Source: Candidatus Levyibacteriota bacterium (GTDB lineage Bacteria; Patescibacteriota; Microgenomatia; Levybacterales; UBA12049). Taken from it: a DNA stretch of 64,000 nt. Of the stretch, positions 8,059-53,835 are shown piece after piece; positions within the stretch are counted from its first letter, which is position 1; each line of letters starts with the position of its first letter. The stretch is taken from NCBI GenBank assembly GCA_043807135.1, contig JAZDGF010000001.1:4573-68572 (forward strand), in the 5' to 3' direction. The notes beneath the pieces are model-generated. The model was not told where the DNA came from, did no database searches, and saw nothing but the letters and a program-made list of their open reading frames with translations. A program made the translations under genes and the position numbers.

Positions 8059-8170
8059 CTCCTGGCGATGACCTATTGTCCCAGATAAAATCCAGTATCG
8101 TCAGCGCTGATACGTTTCACTTCTCTGTTCGGAATGAGAAGAGGTGGTTCCATATCGCTCCAATCACCAG
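8059..8170 (-). rRNA. 5S rRNA
   Basis: The reverse complement contains ...CCACCTCTTCTCATTCCGAACAGAGAAGTGAAACGTATCAGCGCTGACGATACTGG..., matching the conserved 5S core. Confidence 0.75.
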
Positions 8171-8355
8171 AAAATTTCTCTTTTCAAATTGCTTTTTGAC
8201 TCCTTGCAAGCGAAGAGAAGATAATTTAAATCTACAACTTGACCATTAGTACGGGTAGGCTAAACACGTTACCATGCTTACACCGCCCGCCTATCAACCT
8301 GATAGTCTCTCAGGGGTCTTCCTTATAAATAAGATGAGATCTTATCTTGGGAACC

Positions 8356-8386
<31 letters not shown>

Positions 8387-8469
8387 GGTTGGGAATATAG
8401 CTACTCAGCGATGCTCCTTTATCGGAAACAGCTGACACACCAGGGATTCCCTCATCCCAGTCCTCTCGT

Positions 8470-9154
8470 CATTACGTTTTCTCAGATTTCTCTGAGGATC
8501 AGACTATATCTTCACCCAATCTAACTTGGGTGTTGGCGTATAATAAAAGGCTTAGATTTCGGTTTTTAGACCGATATACCTTCTATATGAGTCGTTACGG
8601 GGACTTTCAAAGAGATGTTCTCTGCGATGAATAATAATTATATTCTCGCATTTTCTTAATCCATTCTGAAACATTATATTTATTAATTATTTTCTGTTGC
8701 AATTTTGGAATAAGTTTTATTAATAAACTTGCTTGTTTTTGCTTAAGCCGTAAAAACGGCTTAAGAAGGGTTAAAACTTTTAATGTTTTTGTGAATCCTT
8801 CTATTCGAAGTTCACAAATATTATCATTTCTTGTATAAACATATCCTCCAAGTATTTTTTGCATCCATTCAATATCATTTTTATGACTATTATCTTGGTA
8901 GATGCAAATTACTGTTTTGATACGAATAGTTTTACCTTCTGCATTCTTGCGCAATTGAAGCATAATGCTTCCATCACCATCAAGAAAGCCAGCTATGTAT
9001 GCAAGTTTTTCTCTTTGAGAAAGTCTTCCCACGGTATTATCCTTTGGCACTTTATCTAAGTTTAACATAGGACTAAAATTAAACTCAAACCAAGAGGACT
9101 TCACCGTTATTAGCCAATTTCGATACTGTATTACTACAGTAAAGAGCAATTTCT
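8470..9154 (-). mobile_element. Group I intron with a LAGLIDADG HEG, inserted in the 23S sarcin-ricin loop (between CCUAGU and ACGAGAGGAC; E. coli ~U2656/A2657)
   Basis: The exon junction reconstructs CCCTAGT|ACGAGAGGAC. The intron contains the S-like core GAAGATATAGTCTGA and a single-motif LAGLIDADG ORF. Boundaries were placed by eye (5' exon ends in U, intron ends in G). Confidence 0.6.
8607..9068 (-). CDS. LAGLIDADG homing endonuclease (single-motif, I-CreI-like) encoded in a 23S intron
   Basis: LAYIAGFLDGDGSIMLQLRK motif. The ORF-track start at 9209 lies in rRNA exon sequence, so the start is taken at the internal Met at 9068. Confidence 0.7.
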   Translation of the reverse strand: MLNLDKVPKDNTVGRLSQREKLAYIAGFLDGDGSIMLQLRKNAEGKTIRIKTVICIYQDNSHKNDIEWMQKILGGYVYTRNDNICELRIEGFTKTLKVLTLLKPFLRLKQKQASLLIKLIPKLQQKIINKYNVSEWIKKMREYNYYSSQRTSL

Positions 9155-9215
9155 TACTAGGGACGAATTCCCTCAAATCTCGACGATTATGCAGGATAGA
9201 GACCGACAATTATGT

Positions 9216-9549
9216 TACTCAACAGAATAATTCTGTAGGGCGTATGTATTTCTACTACGCTCTCCGATTCGCATCGGAGTTCGGACTATATCTTCCCTTC
9301 GATAAACTCAGGGTCTAGTGTATAGTCTCTGGGGCTCTAAAAGATATTTTCTCTTAGTTGCCTGCTGATTGTCCGCACTTAAAACATTTTTACTTGTTAT
9401 AGAAATAAAATAACTCTAATGTCAAGTAGCTTAAGATGCTCGGAGTTTCCAGCATATAGCTAGATTTATTCCCGCTTTTATACGGGACCTTCAAATTTTC
9501 TCTTTACAGTTCAAAACGCTTGAAGGAAGACAGCAACGGTCATTTGCTT
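9216..9549 (-). mobile_element. ORF-less group I intron in 23S at the L2593-equivalent site (GACAGU|UCGGUC)
   Basis: Exons reconstruct CGTAAGACAGT|TCGGTCTCTATC. The 334-nt insert contains R-like CAGAGACTATACAC and S-like GAAGATATAGTCCGAAC core elements and no ORF of 60 aa or more. Confidence 0.6.
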
Positions 9550-9557
9550 ACTGTCTT

Positions 9558-9615
<58 letters not shown>

Positions 9616-9629
9616 AACCTTCTCCAGCT

Positions 9630-9665
<36 letters not shown>

Positions 9666-9704
9666 GCATCGTCGCTGTGGACGCTTGGATGCGATCAGCC
9701 TGTT

Positions 9705-10577
9705 CATGTATTTGTGCTTTTGCACATCTCCACAATTTCTTGTGGCACTGACTATATCTTCATCCGCCAAGATGGCGGAGTACGGCGTGTGATAGTTAAA
9801 TAACTATCTCACTACTTATCGCGTTATGCGATTTTCGATCAGTCGATACGGGGTCAAGAGGTAATTTATAACGCATTGATAAAATAATATATTTTCGTAT
9901 TAAACTTATCAATTTTTGCGTTTCTATGACACTAAAAATTAAAACAGATCCTTTCTTTTTCTTTTTAACTGTTGGTAAAAGATTGAAATTGTTTTTAAAC
10001 ATCTCCAGTAAATATCTTTTACTCTCTTTGTCAAAGTTTGGAATATAAAGATAGGCTATTTTATCTCTATGATAATAATATCCATCATCCATAAACCAAA
10101 CAGCTAAAGAAAGAGGATTTTTAAAGATTGTCGTTATTGTTTCTGGAATAATCTTTTGCGAATTATCGTAAAAGATGTTTCGCAATTTTCCAAAATCAGA
10201 ACTTGCTGTTGACTGAATACGAACATATTTATATGTTTTTTTCCAGATAGGATTTTTTCTTTCAAGAACTTTTATATTGCTTTGAAAATAGTTTCGTAAT
10301 TGCTCTACTTTCCATTCAAGATAATTTCTCTGAGAAATTCCTTGCTCAAGTCGTAATCTTGCATTCTGCTTACCTGTTTTTTGCAAATAAGCATCGCCTA
10401 AGATCAGACCTATCACGATATCTTTTTGTTTTCGTGTCATTTTTTCCTCCGACTTCCCACGGTATTACCCTTTGCCTCCTCGTAGTGGAAAGACTTGTAA
10501 CCACCAGACAAGAGGGCTTCACCGTTATTAGCCGTATACTTGATTCTATGTTACCATAAAATCGGGACACAGTAATG
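9705..10577 (-). mobile_element. Group I intron with a double-motif LAGLIDADG HEG in 23S at the L2449-equivalent site (GGGGAU|AACAGGCUGA)
   Basis: Exons reconstruct CCCCGGGGAT|AACAGGCTGATCGC. The S-like GAAGATATAGTCAGTGCC lies near the 3' end. It shares GGCTAATAACGGTGAAG(C/T)CCTCTTG and ATACCGTGGGAAG blocks with the intron at 8470-9154. Confidence 0.65.
9796..10440 (-). CDS. LAGLIDADG homing endonuclease (two motifs: IGLILGDAYL, AVWFMDDGYY)
   Basis: Both LAGLIDADG-type motifs are present, and the ORF lies entirely within the intron. Confidence 0.75.
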   Translation of the reverse strand: MTRKQKDIVIGLILGDAYLQKTGKQNARLRLEQGISQRNYLEWKVEQLRNYFQSNIKVLERKNPIWKKTYKYVRIQSTASSDFGKLRNIFYDNSQKIIPETITTIFKNPLSLAVWFMDDGYYYHRDKIAYLYIPNFDKESKRYLLEMFKNNFNLLPTVKKKKKGSVLIFSVIETQKLISLIRKYIILSMRYKLPLDPVSTDRKSHNAISSEIVI

Positions 10578-11032
10578 TATCCCCGGGGTAGCTTTTATCC
10601 GATAAGCTGTGTGCCTACCACTAGGCATCACAGGATCACTAACACCGACTTTCGTCCCTGCTCGACTTGTAGGTCTCGCAGTCAAGCTGGCTTATGTGTT
10701 TGCACTATCACCTTGATTTCCATCCAAGGTTAGCCAACCTTTGTACGACTCCGTTACTCTTTAGGAGTCAACTTCCCCAGTTAAACTGCCCACCAGACAC
10801 TGTTCCTTAGCCGAATTTTTTTGCGGCAATAAGGTAATGATCACTTATTTCAAAGAGAGGTATTTCACTAGCGCCTAAGCTCCCTCCTATTCTAAACAAT
10901 TAAAATAAACTTTCAAATGCCAAGCTACAGTAAAGCTCCCGGGGTCTTTTTGTCCATGCATAATTAGGCCGCGTCTTCACGGCCATCTCAATTTCGCCGG
11001 GTAGATGTTCAAGACAGTTACTCAGTCGTTCT

Positions 11033-11068
<36 letters not shown>

Positions 11069-11089
11069 CTTCGCTACCATAGAACAGTT

Positions 11090-11801
11090 CACTTTTGTTA
11101 CTTGCTCTGATTGATTACAGAGTCTCATGGTCGCCCATGAGGTCGGACTATATCATCCTCACCTTTTCAGGTGGGTTTAGCGTATAGTCTCTGAGGATTC
11201 CTTATTCGAAAATATCTTTATAGCCATATTTTCTTGTTCTTCCCTTACCTTTGTTTAATTTTTCTCTTAAGATTAAAATTCTTTTTAATCCTTTAGTATT
11301 TCTGTGTTCTCCACTTTTAACAAGCTTTGAAATATCACGAAAAATATTAAAGTTGTAAATTTTACTTTTAGAGAGTAAAGGATATTTTGTAAAATATGGA
11401 ATAATTTTATCGACTATTTCTTGAGAGCTTGTAACATCCAGAGAATGCAATCCGTCTTTTCTTACTTTAATAATTCCGCATTTCAATTCTTTTTTTAAAA
11501 CGTAAAGAATTGATGAATCTTTTTGTGAAACATTAAAGCTTAAAACAACTTGCCAATTAACTTTATAATCGCTCTTTTTACGAAGCGAAACATTAAAGCT
11601 TCCTTCTCCTTCTACAAACCCTGCAATAAAATAGCCTAAATTTTCTCGATCAAGGCCTTTCCTGCTGATTGTCTGCGCTGGACGTTTTTTCACCATATCT
11701 TTATATTAACATGGTACCGCCAGATACTTCAACCGTCTGTTTTATACAGTTGCGGTACAGATTTTCCAGCATATAGCTAAATTTTACAACTACAATTGCT
11801 T
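11090..11801 (-). mobile_element. Group I intron with a LAGLIDADG HEG in 23S helix 69 at the L1917-equivalent site (GUAACUAU|AACUG)
   Basis: Exons reconstruct GTAACTAT|AACTGTTCTATGGTAGCGAAG. The 3' core is CCTCAGAGACTATACGCTAAACCC...GAGGATGATATAGTCCGACC (R/P8/S). Confidence 0.65.
11202..11696 (-). CDS. LAGLIDADG homing endonuclease (single motif LGYFIAGFVEGEGSF)
   Basis: LAGLIDADG motif near the N-terminus, inside the L1917 intron. Confidence 0.75.
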   Translation of the reverse strand: MVKKRPAQTISRKGLDRENLGYFIAGFVEGEGSFNVSLRKKSDYKVNWQVVLSFNVSQKDSSILYVLKKELKCGIIKVRKDGLHSLDVTSSQEIVDKIIPYFTKYPLLSKSKIYNFNIFRDISKLVKSGEHRNTKGLKRILILREKLNKGKGRTRKYGYKDIFE

Positions 11802-12639
11802 ATAGTTACTGCTGCCGTTTACTGGAGCTTGTATCCTAAGCTGAACATTGCTGTCTCACTAGAGATACTTGACTTACCAGCACTGGGCAGGTGTCAGCCC
11901 CTATACTTTGCCTTTCGGCTTTGCAGGGACCTATGTTTTAGATAAACAGTCGCTAAATACACTTTTGTTGAAACCGCGTTCTTACACGCGGCAAGGCATC
12001 TCCCATAGGTTACGCCTAGCTTTTTTGCCGAGTTCCTTGAACATCTTTCTCCCGATCGCCTTAGTCTACTCGACCAGCCCACCTGTGTCGGTAATCGGTA
12101 CGGTAAAATATGAGTTTTTTCCGATAAATCGGAACCAATGAGGCTTTTCTTGGAAACTGAAACGTACTATATTGTTCCCTATTGCTAGGAAACTTTCACT
12201 CGTAGTTCAATTAAACAGATTAAGGGATTTGCCACTTATTCCTACTTTACTACTTGGACCCATCTTGCGATAGGCATAGTTTTTCCAATTCCGTTACCCC
12301 CTCAGAATACTCATATTCTGTAGTCGAATTTCAACGACTTATCCATCGAGTTACCCCCCATTATTAAGGGACACCCTTAGGACCGACTAACCCTCCGCTG
12401 ACTTACATTGCGGAGGAAACCTTGGGCATTCGGCGGTCCTGTTTCTCACAGGACTCTCGCTACTCATACCGGCATTCTCACTTCTGTCCGCTCCACAACA
12501 CTTTACAGTTGTTGCTTCACCGCAAACAGAACGCTCCCCTACCAACCTTACGGTTCTCCAGCTTCGGCAAAGAACTTAATCCTCGGTGGATTTTCGGCGC
12601 CAAGTACCAATCCTCCAGTGAGCTGTTACGCTATCTTTA

Positions 12640-12670
<31 letters not shown>

Positions 12671-13239
12671 TTGTCTCTGGAACCTGACTTCCTTCCAAAC
12701 TTAGTTCTTATTTAGAGGCCTTAGCTGGGAGTCTGGGCTGTTTCCCTTTTGACCCATCAGCTTAGCCCGAAGGGTCTGACTAGGATACAACAAGCTCTGG
12801 CATTCGGAGTTTGATTGGTTGCGAGAAATTACTTCCCCACGAACCATTCAGTGCTCTACCTCCAAAACTCTATACGTATCCCGCTATACCAAAATATATT
12901 TCGGGGAGAACCAGCTATCTCTGAGTTCGTTTGGCATATAGCCCCTAACCTCAAGTCATCTCATACCATTGCTACGGTAACGAGTTCGGGCCTCCTCCTA
13001 CATCTCTGTAGGACTCACCCTGCTCAAGGCTAGCTCACTCAGTTTCGGGTCTACTAACTGCAACTAACGACCAATTAGGTCACGCTTTCACTATGTCTCC
13101 GTTACGTTCCGTAACTTAGACTAACGCTGCAATCAATAACTCACCGGTTCATTCTTCAATAGGCACGCCATTATCCTTACGGACTCTGGCTGCTTGTTAG
13201 CCAACAATTTCAGGTCTATTTCATCCCCCTCCCGGGGTG

Positions 13240-13278
<39 letters not shown>

Positions 13279-13942
13279 AGACTTTGGTGTTTAGTCTTGG
13301 AACGTGGCCGCCCCAGCTTCCCACAGGGTTTTATCGTACCCCATGGTACTTAGGTACAAACTATCGGGGTCTTTCCTTTCATGTACGAGCCTTTCACTCT
13401 CTATGGGGGATTATTCCAAATCCTTCTATTAGAAAAAACCGCATCGAATATCGTCTGCCCTGCAACCCCCGAATAAATTCGGGTTTAGACTTTTCCGCTT
13501 TCGCTCGCCGCTACTTACGGAATCTCGTATGATTTCTTTTCCTGGTGTTACTAAGATGTTTCAGTTCACACCGTTCCCCACCAAACACTATATATATCAT
13601 TGCTGATATATTTTTATGTTTGGTTCTTGTAAAAACAAGGGGTTTCCCCATTCGGAAACCGCCGGATCATAGGTTTATGACACCTACCCGACGAGTATCG
13701 CCGCCATATGCGTCCTTCCTCGGCCAAAATCTCCTAGGCATCCATTATTGGCATTATGAGTAGATTTAAATTATGTTAATTCCGTTAAATTTTCCGTAAA
13801 CAAAAATGCTTTTGGAAAATCAAACGGAAATTCTTCTCCTCACTTGTCAAAGAGCCAAATCATTATCTTTTCGGGATAACCCCCTCTCACTAGGGGGCTT
13901 GCCCCAAAAGATAATCTTACTAGTTTTATTTAGCTTGACGAG

Positions 13943-14016
13943 TGGACCGGAAGAGATTCGAACTCTCGACCTTCGCGATGCAAACGCGACGCTCTACCAG
14001 ACTAAGCTACCGGCCC
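13943..14016 (-). tRNA. tRNA-Ala (anticodon UGC)
   Basis: Reverse complement GGGCCGGTAGCTTAGTCTGGTAGAGCGTCGCGTTTGCATCGCGAAGGTCGAGAGTTCGAATCTCTTCCGGTCCA folds as a cloverleaf: anticodon stem TCGCG/CGCGA, loop TTTGCAT. Confidence 0.9.
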
Positions 14017-26588: not shown

Positions 26589-29345
26589 TTATTTTTTCCC
26601 TTGCTGTTTATACATCTCAATTAATTCTTTAACTGTAGTTGCATCTTCTGCTTTTTTATCCCTTTCTCTAAATGAAACAAGTCTTGGAAAGCGAAGCGCA
26701 TAACCTGGATTATCTTTAATCATTCCAGCAGTATGAATTGGACTTCTGGTTATTTCATCTGCCAAGACTTCAATTACAATCTCCGGTCTAATCCAAACTG
26801 ATGGAATAGTCTTAGAATTAACCCGAGCCGGTTTATGATCTACTCTTATTTTATCTGCTCTTTTATGAATCTCTTTCCATTCCTCATCAGTTAATCCGGT
26901 ACCAATCTTTGAAACAGTCACAAATTCATCTAATTTTTTATCATAAATTCCTACCAAAAGTGCTCCGGCTCCAAAAGCTGTTCTTTTTCCTTTACCTGTA
27001 ACATAACCCAAAATTACACAATCAATTGTATCGTGTAACTCCCCTTGAGAATGTCTTTTAAGTTTTACCCAATTGAAATTTCTTCCTCCTGCTACGTATT
27101 TACTTTCTATTTTCTTAACCACTAACCCTTCCAATCCCTTAGAAATTGCATCATCTAAAAGAAGTTCCAAGGTTTTAGAATCCTTAACAATTTGGTTTTT
27201 AGATGGAATTAAAATATCATCTTCTTCAATAGTCTCTTTTAAAATCTTAAGCCTTTTATCTAAGGGTTCGTCAATCAAAGATTTTCCGTCTTTGTATAAA
27301 ATGTCAAAAACAAAAGCTTTTAAAGGAAGTTTTTCTGCCATTTCTTCAATTCTATGTTTTCTTCTTCTTTTAGTAGTTTCTTGAAAGGGTAAAAACTCTT
27401 CTGATTCAGTATTGTATGCAAGTGCTTCCGTATCTAAAATTGCTGTTTTTGCTTTTACTTGTTTTTTAGTTGCTTTAATAAGCTCTGGAAACATATGAGT
27501 CATATTTTCTAAGTTTCTTGAAAACATATATACCTTGTCATGATCCTTGTGAATTTGACAATTATGCAAAGTTGCCATTGGAATACAAAAGCTTTTATCC
27601 TCTTCTACTTGAAGATCGTAAAGCTGAATTCTCGGATCTCTTCTTATTATTTCCTGATTTCGCATTACCTTAACTATCAATCTTTGGTTTTCAATTCTTG
27701 TCTTCCTATTAGTCTTTGGGATTACCAATTGATAATAAGTTTTATTTTTTACCCTTATATAATGAAAACCAATAATAATATTATGCGAAAGAGCTATTAA
27801 TTGAGCCATTGTTGCTAAATCCCGTTCCTTAGTAGTAATTTTTGTAACTCCGTCTTTATCTATGTGTCCATCTGACTCAATCCAACCTTGCAAGAAACAT
27901 TCAAAATGCTTCTTTTTTACATGGACAAACCAATCAGGGATCATCTTTCCTAACCATTCTCTTCTAAAATAAGTAGAAAGCCAATGTTTTAATGGCTCAT
28001 CTCGCCAGTAAATATTTAATCCACCATTATAGATATAACGAGTTATCTTTTTAACTCCTAAGCTATCTTTGATCAATTCTTCATAAAAATTTGCTAATTT
28101 TTTTTCTTTTTTTGCATTAAATGTCAAACCAACTCTTTCGGTGTTATGAAAATCATTAGTAAAACCATCTCCAATCCAGAAACCTAAAAAACGATAGAAA
28201 TTTTCATTAAGTAAAAATGTCTTTTTGTACCCGGAAATTGTTTGAAGTTCTAGTTTTTTTGAGAAAGAATGAGAATTATTGAAGGGAAATTTCGGCAATG
28301 GAAAAACTACTTCATTTCCTGGCTTAAGATCCTCTATTTTTTTCCATATTTCCTTACCATTGTCAAAACATAATATTAGATGTCCTTCTGAAATTTTAAT
28401 TTCTTCACCTAGATAAGTTTTAAATTTAAATAATCGCTCTTTTCTTTCAATTGTTCTCTTATTTTTTGCAATTACTTTTTTAAATTGCCCTGTTTTTGTT
28501 AGAACTAAATCCCCTATTTTTAAATCTCTAACTGCTGTTATTCCCTTACTCTTAGCATAAATAGGAGTATAACCTGTAACGCAACGGAATCCATCGTACT
28601 TATACTGAACGTCCACTTTTTCCATCTTTTCAATTGTTTTTTCAGGAGTTGGAAGTCTTTCACAAAGCTCTGATCTTATCGGTTTTCCAATCTGAATATC
28701 CAACTTTTCTACAGCAGAAAGCCCATTTGTTTTTAAGGTTTTTGCAATCAAACCAAGATCTGATGTCCTGTTATATGCGCCTTCCAAAAGTTTTCTTTTA
28801 CTTTTGTCTCCTAATATTGCCTTTGCAAGGCCATCTAATGCTGTTGGGTCTCCTATGCCAAGACGAAGATTTCCAAGCGGGATTCTTACTAAATATCTTG
28901 CAGCTAAAGGATCCATTTTCATAAGAAGACTAGATAGTAAATTTTGCTTTATTTCAACGCTTCCTTCTCCTGAAGTTTTAGCAATCTTAATAAGTGTTTC
29001 AAAAACTTCTTCAACGCTTAATTTATTGCTTTTTGTATCTAATCCTTTGCTAAGTTTTTCTGAAACCTTTCCCATGTCTCCAAGCTCCTGATAAAGTTTT
29101 AGTACTTCTTTTTGAGTTGATTTAAAAGAACGGGCAATTGACTCTGCAACCATTTTATCTGCCATACCAATTTCCGTTGAGTCAAAAAAAGGAGTAATTC
29201 TGCCTTGAATTAAATAGGTAATTTTTTCAAGTTCTTCAGCTGACTTAATTGATTTAAAAAGATCAGATAAAATATCTATTAAAGTAAGCCTGGAAGATGT
29301 TTCTTCTAGTTTTTCAAAATATTTAGAAAGTTCTAAGAAAGTCAT
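26589..29345 (-). CDS. ATP-dependent DNA ligase interrupted by a LAGLIDADG (DOD) intein
   Basis: Ligase motif I YKYDGFR is followed by intein N-terminus CVTG...; the intein C-terminus is ...ATLHN|CQIH. The extein is ~577 aa with a ligase N-terminal DNA-binding domain. Confidence 0.85.
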   Translation of the reverse strand: MTFLELSKYFEKLEETSSRLTLIDILSDLFKSIKSAEELEKITYLIQGRITPFFDSTEIGMADKMVAESIARSFKSTQKEVLKLYQELGDMGKVSEKLSKGLDTKSNKLSVEEVFETLIKIAKTSGEGSVEIKQNLLSSLLMKMDPLAARYLVRIPLGNLRLGIGDPTALDGLAKAILGDKSKRKLLEGAYNRTSDLGLIAKTLKTNGLSAVEKLDIQIGKPIRSELCERLPTPEKTIEKMEKVDVQYKYDGFRCVTGYTPIYAKSKGITAVRDLKIGDLVLTKTGQFKKVIAKNKRTIERKERLFKFKTYLGEEIKISEGHLILCFDNGKEIWKKIEDLKPGNEVVFPLPKFPFNNSHSFSKKLELQTISGYKKTFLLNENFYRFLGFWIGDGFTNDFHNTERVGLTFNAKKEKKLANFYEELIKDSLGVKKITRYIYNGGLNIYWRDEPLKHWLSTYFRREWLGKMIPDWFVHVKKKHFECFLQGWIESDGHIDKDGVTKITTKERDLATMAQLIALSHNIIIGFHYIRVKNKTYYQLVIPKTNRKTRIENQRLIVKVMRNQEIIRRDPRIQLYDLQVEEDKSFCIPMATLHNCQIHKDHDKVYMFSRNLENMTHMFPELIKATKKQVKAKTAILDTEALAYNTESEEFLPFQETTKRRRKHRIEEMAEKLPLKAFVFDILYKDGKSLIDEPLDKRLKILKETIEEDDILIPSKNQIVKDSKTLELLLDDAISKGLEGLVVKKIESKYVAGGRNFNWVKLKRHSQGELHDTIDCVILGYVTGKGKRTAFGAGALLVGIYDKKLDEFVTVSKIGTGLTDEEWKEIHKRADKIRVDHKPARVNSKTIPSVWIRPEIVIEVLADEITRSPIHTAGMIKDNPGYALRFPRLVSFRERDKKAEDATTVKELIEMYKQQGKK
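27561..28583 (-). mobile_element. Intein (341 aa) with a LAGLIDADG homing endonuclease domain inserted after DNA ligase motif I
   Basis: The intein starts with Cys, ends with HN, and the +1 extein residue is Cys. Dodecapeptide motifs are FLGFWIGDGF and FLQGWIESDGHI. Confidence 0.8.
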
Positions 29346-50581: not shown

Positions 50582-50594
50582 AGTAGATTCCAGG

Positions 50595-50668
50595 TGGGTC
50601 AGGATGGATTCGAACCATCGAACTTCCATTTTATAAGAATGGCACTCTAACCACTGAGTTACTGACCC
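50595..50668 (-). tRNA. tRNA-Ile with UAU anticodon
   Basis: Reverse complement GGGTCAGTAACTCAGTGGTTAGAGTGCCATTCTTATAAAATGGAAGTTCGATGGTTCGAATCCATCCTGACCCA. Anticodon stem CCATT/AATGG, loop CTTATAA; the variable loop appears to be 6 nt. Confidence 0.7.
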
Positions 50669-51468: not shown

Positions 51469-53835
51469 TTAGAGCCTTGCTCTAGCAGCAATTTCTGCCT
51501 CAATGGAGTTTACTTCTTTTCCGTATTTAAGCCTAGATAATTCTTTTATAAGTTCTGCAACTCTTGGATTCTCCGCTGCTTTCTCTTTTGCCATATCCCG
51601 AGTTAAATCCATAGAAAAAGGCGGAATCGGTTCTCCATAAACTACTGTTTTTATATAGGCGTTATATCTATCAACATTAATAAGGTCTGCTTCGGTAAAT
51701 ACCGGCTGGAATTCATGTTGGAGATAGTTTGCATCTGTAACACCTACCCTAAATGCTGTAAGAGTTCCCACGTTTCCAAAAATTGCATTTTTAACTTCTT
51801 CATCCATTTGTCCAATAAACTGATTCGCAACTATTAAATTAAGCCTGTATTTTCTTGCTTCAGATAAAATTTGGGCAAAATCAGGAGTCGCAAAATTTTG
51901 AAACTCGTCTACATATAGATAAAAATCTCGCCTTGATTCTTCAGGAATATCTTGCCTACTCATTGCAGCAACTAAAATCTTAGGAACTAGAATAAGTCCC
52001 AAAAATGCAGAGTTTTCTTCTCCGATTTTTCCCTTGGAAAGTGAAACCAAAAGAATTTTTCCTTCATCCATTACTTTTCTAAAATCAAAGGAAGACTCTG
52101 ATTGTCCGATAATATTTCGCATCATTTTATTGGTTACAAAACGACCGAACTTAGAGACAATATAATCAAGTACTTCAGATTTATGAAAATCACTTGTCTG
52201 AGCAATCTGATCAGTCCAGTAACGTCTTATAATCGGGTCTTTTACTTTTGGTAAAAGTTCTTCTACAAAAGTAGAATCTGTTAAAACACGAACAACTTCT
52301 ATAAAAGTATTACCAGGCTCAGACATAACCGTAAGCATGGCGTTTCTAATTGCGTGCTCAAAACGTGGACCGATAATTCCTGTTTTATTAGGATCATAAA
52401 GCTTATACATAAGTCCAACGATTGCAGAAACTACATAGTGTTTTTGATCTTCTGTTTTTGCCTCAAGCATGTTTAATCCCATTGGCCGATCTACGTCTGA
52501 GGGATCAAATAATATTACATCTTCAGCTCGCTCAGGTGGAATAAGAGGTAAAAGCTTATCAATAGTATCATGAGGATCAATAAAACAAACACCTTCTCCG
52601 TTTTTAATGTCTTGCAAAATCATATCTTTTAGAAATTCTGATTTTCCAACACCGGTTTTTCCAATAGTATACATATGTTTTCTCCTATCATCTCTTTGCA
52701 TATAAATAGGTTTTGATAAGCCTCTAAAAATGCTCCTTCCTAAGAAAAGACCTGTGTCTGGAATTTGTGCAGGAGCTGGTGCTCTTTTTGAGGTAAGCCA
52801 GTGAATATGCGGAGTTTGCACCTGTTTATTTGGAAAATGAAAAATCGTTGCCAGCTCCTCACTTGTTAAGACTGATGTTTGACCTCGCATTGGCATATAT
52901 CTGTAAACAAAATCCGTCATAAACATGCCTTTAACCAAATGCTTATTTGTTGTAAAAGAATTTGCTCCAGAGAATTGGCTAAAAGCATTTTTAATATTAT
53001 TCAAATGAGCTTCTGCTGATTCTTTGGTGCTTGATGAAACAACCATTCTTATTACCACATTAAAGCCTGGTTTTGAAATTTTATTTTCAACCCCTTCTAG
53101 TTCTTTTGAATCAGATGAATACTTAGCAGTTTCTGGGTTTGCCTCAGATTTTTTAGTAGAAGCAATATAGCTCCTACCTCTTTTTTTCCATCTTGAACCG
53201 GCCGGCTCAACAATAATCTGAATTGCAGCTCCCTCCCCTTCAGCCATTTTTGCTAAAACAGAAGTAATTGAAGAAAGAGAATCAGTCGGTAAGTCTTTAA
53301 AAACTTTAATTGGTAAGTAATCCGAAGTTTTAAGCTTCATGCTCGCAACAACAACTTTTCCTTCATTGGAAAAAATATTATATTCATTACCAAAGGTATA
53401 TCCTTGTCTTCCAGACTTTGAATCAACTACTTTAATCTCTGCGTCAGGATATGCGCCATTAATTTGCTTTTCAATTAAATCCTTGTATTTATTTGGCACA
53501 TCAACATAAAAACGGATGTCTTGTGGAATACCGACAATCTCAAAAGTAAGATGCGGTTGAGATTTTAAAAAACTTAACTTCCCACTTTTTCTTAAACCTG
53601 CAATACCTGCAAAAAGCTGCTCTGCTGCGTCAATTTTTATTTCATTGTCTCTTGGAAGTGTAATTTGTAAAAGAGTTGAATTAAGTGAATCTTTTTCTCT
53701 ATTCCTATGTCTATACCAAAGATATATTACGTAAAAAATTGCTGCTGATGTGAGAACAATAAAAGAAGAAATTAAAAACCCAAGAAAAAGAGATATTAAA
53801 AAAGGGTACAGCTGATCTAGTGTAAAGTTAATCAT
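51469..53835 (-). CDS. VirD4/TraD/TraG-like type IV coupling protein ATPase (membrane-anchored)
   Basis: N-terminal TM helices, Walker A TIGKTGVGKSEFL, Walker B LYVDEFQNF. Confidence 0.5.
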   Translation of the reverse strand: MINFTLDQLYPFLISLFLGFLISSFIVLTSAAIFYVIYLWYRHRNREKDSLNSTLLQITLPRDNEIKIDAAEQLFAGIAGLRKSGKLSFLKSQPHLTFEIVGIPQDIRFYVDVPNKYKDLIEKQINGAYPDAEIKVVDSKSGRQGYTFGNEYNIFSNEGKVVVASMKLKTSDYLPIKVFKDLPTDSLSSITSVLAKMAEGEGAAIQIIVEPAGSRWKKRGRSYIASTKKSEANPETAKYSSDSKELEGVENKISKPGFNVVIRMVVSSSTKESAEAHLNNIKNAFSQFSGANSFTTNKHLVKGMFMTDFVYRYMPMRGQTSVLTSEELATIFHFPNKQVQTPHIHWLTSKRAPAPAQIPDTGLFLGRSIFRGLSKPIYMQRDDRRKHMYTIGKTGVGKSEFLKDMILQDIKNGEGVCFIDPHDTIDKLLPLIPPERAEDVILFDPSDVDRPMGLNMLEAKTEDQKHYVVSAIVGLMYKLYDPNKTGIIGPRFEHAIRNAMLTVMSEPGNTFIEVVRVLTDSTFVEELLPKVKDPIIRRYWTDQIAQTSDFHKSEVLDYIVSKFGRFVTNKMMRNIIGQSESSFDFRKVMDEGKILLVSLSKGKIGEENSAFLGLILVPKILVAAMSRQDIPEESRRDFYLYVDEFQNFATPDFAQILSEARKYRLNLIVANQFIGQMDEEVKNAIFGNVGTLTAFRVGVTDANYLQHEFQPVFTEADLINVDRYNAYIKTVVYGEPIPPFSMDLTRDMAKEKAAENPRVAELIKELSRLKYGKEVNSIEAEIAARARL

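Follow-up and report, generated by a model that had tools for sequence, protein, structure and literature searches.

A group I intron carrying a gene for an I-CreI-like homing endonuclease was confirmed to interrupt the sarcin-ricin loop (SRL) of a 23S rRNA gene, between U2656 and A2657 (Escherichia coli numbering), in a stretch of DNA from a Candidatus Levyibacteriota bacterium (GenBank assembly GCA_043807135.1, contig JAZDGF010000001.1, positions 4,573 to 68,572). This 64-kb stretch (64,000 nucleotides), analysed as a whole, is called the window below, and coordinates without another indication are window positions. The insertion, designated L2656, is very probably a mobile member of the group I intron family found at position 2656/2657 of 23S genes in the candidate phyla radiation (CPR, Patescibacteria), published as site 23IS14. 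A catalogue of 2024 already had this site, together with the type of intron, the family of the encoded protein and the group of hosts, and the copy in the window is an ordinary member of this known intron family.

The minus strand carries the 23S rRNA gene at about 13766..8239 (Rfam LSU_rRNA_bacteria), within an rRNA operon (14016..8060) with the order tRNA-Ala (14016..13942), 23S and 5S rRNA (8171..8060). A 16S gene was not found anywhere within the window by the Rfam scan. At gathering thresholds, the whole-window Rfam scan listed no intron and returned a merged 23S match whose 3' third was seemingly missing. A re-scan of 8200..10545, judged by E-values, showed that long insertions break up this 3' third, and the covariance model put an insertion of about 691 nt inside the helix 95 loop (...CCCUAGUA[..]GGG). 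The sequence-only reading of this DNA had proposed a group I intron inside the SRL after U2656. The structure-based alignment to the bacterial large-subunit covariance model, which places the insertion within the SRL and not outside it, and the mapping of the junction on E. coli rrlB agree with this proposal.

Global alignment of the spliced exons to rrlB assigned the exon bases preceding the four insertions of the gene to E. coli 1917, 2449, 2604, and 2656. At the last of them, the 5' exon ends in ...GTCCCTAGT at 9156 and the 3' exon begins with ACGAGAGGACTGGG at 8469, both on the minus strand; the insertion therefore spans 9155..8470, and the interval first proposed (8470-9154) was one base short at its 5' end. 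The junction carries a one-base (A) ambiguity and was fixed at U2656|A2657 because, by the group I rule, the exon ends in U and the intron in G. The joined exons give CCUAGUACGAGAGGAC, identical to E. coli 2651-2666; likewise, CCTAGTACGAGAGGAC of the spliced exons is identical to E. coli 2651-2666 in the global alignment, and TAGTACGAGAGGACC was confirmed as positions 2653-2667 against the fetched rrlB sequence. The ligated junction is expected to read ...GUCCCUAGU-ACGAGAGGACUGGG... The gene around the insertion is arranged as follows.

9156..9206, minus strand: 23S exon segment, E. coli 2605-2656 by rrlB alignment, flanked by the introns L2604 and L2656; its end, ...GUCCCUAGU, comprises the helix 95 5' strand and the first SRL nucleotides through U2656
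8470..9155, minus strand: group I intron L2656, 686 nt; first base A at 9155, last base the terminal (omega) G at 8470
8239..8469, minus strand: 23S 3' exon, from A2657 (ACGAGAGGAC...) to the gene end

Homologs of the encoded endonuclease are numerous, with at least 259 in a large protein collection and at least 563 tblastn-confirmed relatives in species-representative genomes. Splice sites were sought in the best 80 of these at least 563 loci, whose proteins are 40-85% identical to the window endonuclease. Both sites were located in 72 of the 80, and all 72 introns lie at U2656|A2657, with a downstream guide sequence as the requirement for assigning the 5' splice site. Of the remaining eight loci, most likewise have a 3' exon that begins at E. 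coli 2657, right after the open reading frame (ORF). The base preceding the 3' exon (ACGAGAGGA) is G in 72/72 loci. At least 72 other species-level genomes have the pair of L2656 intron and enzyme at this position, and the insertion of the intron at the SRL is not a chance pattern.

The group I fold of the L2656 intron is complete and supported by covariation. It was first drawn manually, using the window and related sequences, and then tested on an ORF-deleted alignment (A2) of nine relatives. With MAFFT, the 72 ORF-deleted introns gave an alignment of 918 columns, too gappy for column-based counts, so the nine close relatives were used. The pseudoknotted helix P7 was written in square brackets for pair counting. 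The elements of the fold are listed below from the 5' end of the intron.

9145..9158, minus strand: P1, exon AGU and intron AA (9158..9154) with UUGCU (9149..9145), GAAA tetraloop
9124..9141, minus strand: P2, UACUGUA-GUAA-UACAGUA, GNRA-capped; 7/7 pairs change on both sides among the nine relatives
9113..9117, minus strand: 5' strand of P3, UUGGC, with its partner GCCAA at 8537..8533; 100% paired
9031..9107, minus strand: P4-P5-P5a domain, in which P5 and P5a covary and P4 is invariant
9107..9103 with 9035..9031, minus strand: P4, ACGGU with ACCGU; 100% paired
9098..9090 with 9047..9040, minus strand: P5
9086..9079 with 9065..9058, minus strand: P5a
8602..9025, minus strand: P6 and its loop L6, GACUUUCUCAAAGAGA (9025..9010) with UCUCUUUGAAAGUC (8615..8602); the loop holds most of the ORF
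8502..8593, minus strand: 3' part of the catalytic core, with P7, P7.1/P7.1a, P3', P8 and the joining segment J8/7
8593..8587 with 8507..8502, minus strand: P7, GACU-C-AU with AUAGUC; 96% paired, invariant
8586..8543, minus strand: P7.1/P7.1a, with P7.1 formed by 8586..8579 and 8550..8543 and an inner hairpin P7.1a; four pairs change on both sides
8532..8513, minus strand: P8; four pairs change on both sides
GAAGAUAUAGUC, minus strand: J8/7 and the 3' strand of P7 (P7', 8507..8502)
8470..8496, minus strand: P9 hairpin, CUCAGA-GAAA-UCUGAG (8496..8481), and 3' tail ending in G 8470; three pairs change on both sides

Over the 71 pairs and nine relatives, 91.1% of cells pair, against 33-47% with the partners slid by 1-3 columns. 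Changes on both sides were found in 27 of the 71 pairs, and none of 500 shuffles reached any of the five measures. The covariation comes mostly from P2, P5a, P7.1, P8, and P9; in P3, one pair changes on both sides (UA to CG). P6 was tested per sequence because its register shifts between sequences. Its mean duplex energy was -13.3 kcal/mol with its own partner and -7.3 kcal/mol with mismatched ones (72 loci; Mann-Whitney p = 1.7e-32), and the window's own duplex has -16.1 kcal/mol. The minimum free energy fold of the ORF-deleted window intron recovered every non-pseudoknotted helix (-93.1 kcal/mol).

P3 and P7 cross and thus form a pseudoknot. P7, where the guanosine-binding site of a group I intron would be expected, contains G-C and C-G pairs beside a bulged nucleotide, and GAAGAUAUAGUC agrees with the Rfam consensus at the sequence level. 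A feature of subgroup IA is present, namely P7.1 between P7 and P3': we take an extra helix at this place to be the mark of the subgroup, and helices of the P7.1/P7.2 type were reportedly assigned this meaning by Michel and Westhof in 1990. At the 5' splice site, U2656 (9156) forms a U.G wobble with G9147, and a U.G pair is found in 9/9 aligned relatives, the pattern of P1 being UAGU|AA-GNRA-UUGCUA. The guide following the splice site is TTGCTA in 62/72 loci and TTGCTC in four, including the window (66/72 together). In loci L010, L017, L023, L026, L061, L066, and L076, P1 has an extra hairpin, such as GCCC-GAAA-GGGC, in place of its GNRA loop; the hairpin is located between the splice site and the guide in the first 25-40 nt of the intron.

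The intron encodes a small protein.

8607..9068, minus strand: LAGLIDADG homing endonuclease ORF, 153 aa; ATG at 9068, TGA at 8609..8607

It contains one LAGLIDADG motif (YIAGFLDGDGS) and matches Pfam LAGLIDADG_1 in one stretch (E 2e-8). I-CreI is matched over the full length (E ~1e-13, ~29% identity), and I-MsoI and I-CvuI match too. In the AlphaFold2 model (mean predicted local distance difference test, pLDDT, 85.9) the secondary structure elements follow the I-CreI-like order alpha-beta-beta-alpha-beta-beta-alpha (H-E-E-H-E-E-H), and the top Foldseek matches were I-CreI, I-CvuI, and I-MsoI (template modelling score, TM, 0.72-0.75, 0.73 for I-CreI; probability 1.00). The earlier assignment of the enzyme to the single-motif I-CreI-like LAGLIDADG proteins is upheld by Pfam, the I-CreI match and Foldseek alike. 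Across 29 homologs, residues D32, Q58, and K109 never change; by our reading of the I-CreI alignment, they correspond to D20, Q47, and K98 of I-CreI. The endonuclease gene looks intact.

The start codon at 9068 lies in the P5a loop, and the frame threads P5a', P5', P4' (codons N-T-V-G), and P6, with the TGA stop inside the P6 3' strand. In most relatives, the frame continues through J6/7 and P7, producing a conserved ...VPVTT tail; the window ORF ends earlier (8615..8602). This conserved tail may stem from RNA rather than protein constraints.

The host of the intron is judged to be a CPR bacterium close to Ca. Levybacteria: the FtsH protein encoded in the window is 84-90% identical to Ca. Levybacteria / Patescibacteria group proteins. 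The GC content was about 33%. Of the 80 loci, nearly all belong to records titled CPR/Patescibacteria or generically, and a minority bear other labels. The titles "uncultured Gammaproteobacteria" or "Candidatus Methylomirabilota" were found on L002, L005, L009, L013, and others; these non-CPR titles are probably placeholder labels or binning errors, and if they were true, the intron family would extend beyond the CPR.

Uninterrupted sites were found as well, the exact 29-nt helix-95/SRL site being present in 113 metagenome stretches. The spliced window 23S (2913 nt) is 96.8-97.2% identical to the metagenomic 23S of two of these stretches, L099 (Ga0075530_1000671) and L103 (Ga0209176_10000897), and colinear with it across the four junctions. 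Since the spliced sequence is colinear with this natural gene, the exon boundaries are right. The 23S of L099 and L103 has no introns at 1917, 2449, 2604, and 2656 and carries an insertion of about 316 nt at E. coli 2500 instead; close relatives therefore differ in their intron complement. Such complements appear to turn over quickly between close relatives, and the 97%-identical 23S without the L2656 intron fits mobility.

The life cycle of the intron can be proposed from group I and LAGLIDADG biology. The pre-23S transcript would fold, an external guanosine would attack after U2656, and U2656 would then attack after the terminal G and join A2657, restoring the SRL exactly. EF-Tu and EF-G depend on an unbroken SRL. 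For this reason, and because CPR genomes usually have one rRNA operon (PMC11270868), splicing would have to be obligatory and efficient. The enzyme would dimerise like I-CreI and cut intron-less SRL DNA over about 22 bp around CCCTAGT|ACGAGAGGAC, and repair from an intron-bearing copy would insert the intron (homing). Recognition of the SRL-coding DNA, already proposed in the sequence-only reading, is a reasonable inference, and recognition by a homodimer is plausible. Translation of the ORF and folding of the ribozyme probably could not coincide on one molecule, because the ORF passes through P5a', P5', P4', and P6.

Several observations weigh against a mobile and efficiently splicing intron. 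Splicing of the L2656 intron is predicted from its sequence. P1 is weak in the window, with 5 bp rather than 6 and UUGCUC where most relatives have UUGCUA, and no convincing P10 was found. P1, P4, and P7 never vary, so that covariation is silent for or against them, and the structure was partly derived from the sequences on which it was tested, which favours it over the slid controls. Rfam Intron_gpI (RF00028) matches with 33.1 bits (E 4e-6), in the 3' half only, the gathering score being 50. The low score is likely due to the large ORF-bearing P6 loop and the extra P7.1, and the gathering score is a criterion of the database rather than of biology. No ribosome-binding site was identified for the ORF. 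The presumed target is weakly palindromic, with 5-6/11 symmetric positions near the insertion point, compared with 7/11 in the I-CreI site and a mean of 2.8 in random 22-mers; part of this symmetry arises because helix 95 is itself a hairpin.

A rival reading is an intron that still splices but has become immobile and vertically inherited, its LAGLIDADG protein being nuclease-dead or kept as a maturase. Early acquisition in a CPR ancestor followed by a cycle of gain, degeneration, and loss has been proposed (PMC11270868), the window P1 is weaker than those of relatives, and the window ORF is shorter than most, having no C-terminal ...VPVTT extension. Against this, the ORF is full length relative to I-CreI and has kept D32, Q58, and K109. 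Moreover, since an almost identical (97%) 23S gene has no intron and the same site is shared across many CPR lineages, recent gain or loss fits better than pure vertical descent. We consider immobility unlikely. Excision as an intervening sequence by RNase III, without ligation and leaving a fragmented 23S, is extremely improbable. Sarcin inactivates ribosomes by a break inside the SRL, and a break left there by such processing would mimic it. Intervening sequences are common in bacterial 23S genes and have been reported in the CPR too; the known ones are located in variable helices (23IS2, 23IS4), not in a universally conserved loop (PMC11270868). The Rfam group I score below the threshold would be expected of such an element, whereas the covariation-supported group I core with its pseudoknot, the U.G pair, and the terminal G would not. 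It was rejected on the covariation of the core and the location in a conserved loop.

A chimeric assembly or a dead copy of the rRNA gene is hardly credible either. The DNA is of probable metagenome origin and has no adjacent 16S gene, as such an artefact might, but 72 independently assembled genomes share this architecture, the exons are undamaged and match an intron-less gene at 97% identity over 2913 nt, and the 23S gene has its normal neighbours, the 5S gene and tRNA-Ala. On these grounds, an artefact was rejected, and a mobile intron at 23IS14 remains the preferred reading.

More far-reaching roles can be imagined from the position and anatomy of the intron, and we regard them as very unlikely. 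Splicing might license ribosomes according to the guanine-nucleotide supply: an unspliced 50S subunit would be inert because the intron sits in a loop needed by every translational GTPase, and a link to guanine nucleotides would arise because splicing consumes a guanosine cofactor, here in reduced-genome bacteria. A switch between translation and splicing might be added to this, because the endonuclease ORF overlaps P4-P6. Alternatively, the enzyme might cut the rDNA of almost any intron-less organism, and even that of the CPR cells' own hosts, because the SRL core is universal.

Three further group I introns interrupt the same 23S gene, of which about 2.6 kb is intron.

11801..11090, minus strand: intron L1917, 712 nt, with a LAGLIDADG_1 ORF at 11696..11202
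10578..9705, minus strand: intron L2449, 874 nt, with a LAGLIDADG_2 ORF at 10440..9796
9549..9207, minus strand: intron L2604, 343 nt, no ORF; Rfam Intron_gpI 58 bits

The L2449 intron has the core strings GGCUAAUAACGGUGAAG, AAUACCGUGGGAAG, and GAAGAUAUAGUC in common with the L2656 intron, and the L1917 and L2604 introns open with the same AAGCAA motif. Elsewhere in the window, the gene of an ATP-dependent DNA ligase (29345..26589, minus strand, 918 aa) appears to contain an intein with LAGLIDADG_3 at about aa 296-595. Pfam Intein_splicing scored 30.2 bits there, below the cut-off of 35.8, and LAGLIDADG_3 scored 30.2 bits; if true, the window would thereby hold homing elements of two kinds. 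A tRNA-Ile gene with anticodon UAU (50668..50593) and a 788-aa ORF (53835..51469) with weak matches to coupling proteins of the TraD/TraG type were also found.

The sequence-only reading had implied that the site was new and had itself allowed that it might prove to be a well-known position under different numbering. The latter is the case, since position 2657 is already the frequent CPR site 23IS14 (PMC11270868). Tsurumaki, Sato, Saito and Kanai (J Bacteriol 2024) surveyed 348 CPR 23S genes, of which 82% had insertions, and named 14 frequent sites (PMC11270868). LAGLIDADG_1 proteins predominate at 1917, 1931, 1952, 2593, 2604, and 2657 (23IS6-8 and 12-14), the insertions at 2657 are group I introns, and it was already remarked that this site had not been previously reported in other bacteria (PMC11270868). 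The group I sites were described as concentrated around the peptidyl transferase centre of domain V, and the words sarcin and SRL are absent from the text (PMC11270868). A full-text literature search, with intron catalogues outside its reach, revealed no further publication describing an intron in the SRL or at 2656-2657.

The discovery value of the window copy is thus small, and naming the site as the SRL is a correct refinement of a published site, not a discovery. In exact terms, the published hot spot "2657" is the U2656|A2657 junction of the SRL, which PMC11270868 does not state. In addition, a covariation-supported secondary structure is now available for the 2656/2657 intron family, in which the endonuclease gene is seen to run through P5a', P5', P4', and P6. 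The enzymes of this family are I-CreI relatives with a new predicted and almost universally conserved DNA target, which could interest meganuclease engineers.

Among characterised systems, the protein resembles I-CreI of the Cr.LSU intron (Chlamydomonas reinhardtii chloroplast 23S), I-MsoI, and I-CvuI: each is a single-motif LAGLIDADG enzyme of about 150-165 aa, encoded by a group I intron within the 3' portion of the 23S gene. The I-CreI intron is inserted, we presume, at L2593 rather than at 2656, hence the DNA target differs, and its host is a chloroplast rather than a CPR bacterium. To our knowledge, none of the group I introns described in the 23S genes of Coxiella, Thermotoga, Simkania, and cyanobacteria is located at the SRL. 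Those introns occupy L1917, L1931, and L1951 (see also the reference list of PMC3984707).

Experimental precedent in the CPR is limited to I-ShaI, likewise a single-domain LAGLIDADG enzyme encoded by a 23S intron, in this case of Ca. Shapirobacteria; it cleaves its own insertion site, forms homodimers, and was likened to I-CeuI (PMC11270868). We read its substrate oligonucleotide (...GTAACTCTAACTGTTCTAAGG...) as the L1917 region, which makes I-ShaI the counterpart of the window's L1917 intron (11801..11090), not of the one in the SRL. From 23IS14 itself, the L2656 intron differs in nothing substantive: the text of PMC11270868 has neither the SRL name nor a secondary structure for the intron of this site, and the enzyme assayed there, I-ShaI, came from another site. 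The match to 23IS14 was made on the site number 2657 and on the family of the protein. The family is described there as insertions of at least 100 bp at 2657, group I-like and with LAGLIDADG_1 (PMC11270868), and the L2656 intron, with 686 nt between 2656 and 2657, a LAGLIDADG_1 domain and a CPR host, agrees with each of these features. The likeness to 23IS14 thus covers the host, the 2656|2657 site, the group I-like insertion, and the single-domain LAGLIDADG_1 ORF, and it extends to the company the intron keeps, since co-occurring insertions at 1917 and 2604 are listed in PMC11270868; the L2604 intron of the window is 23IS13 of that list, and the window adds one at 2449.

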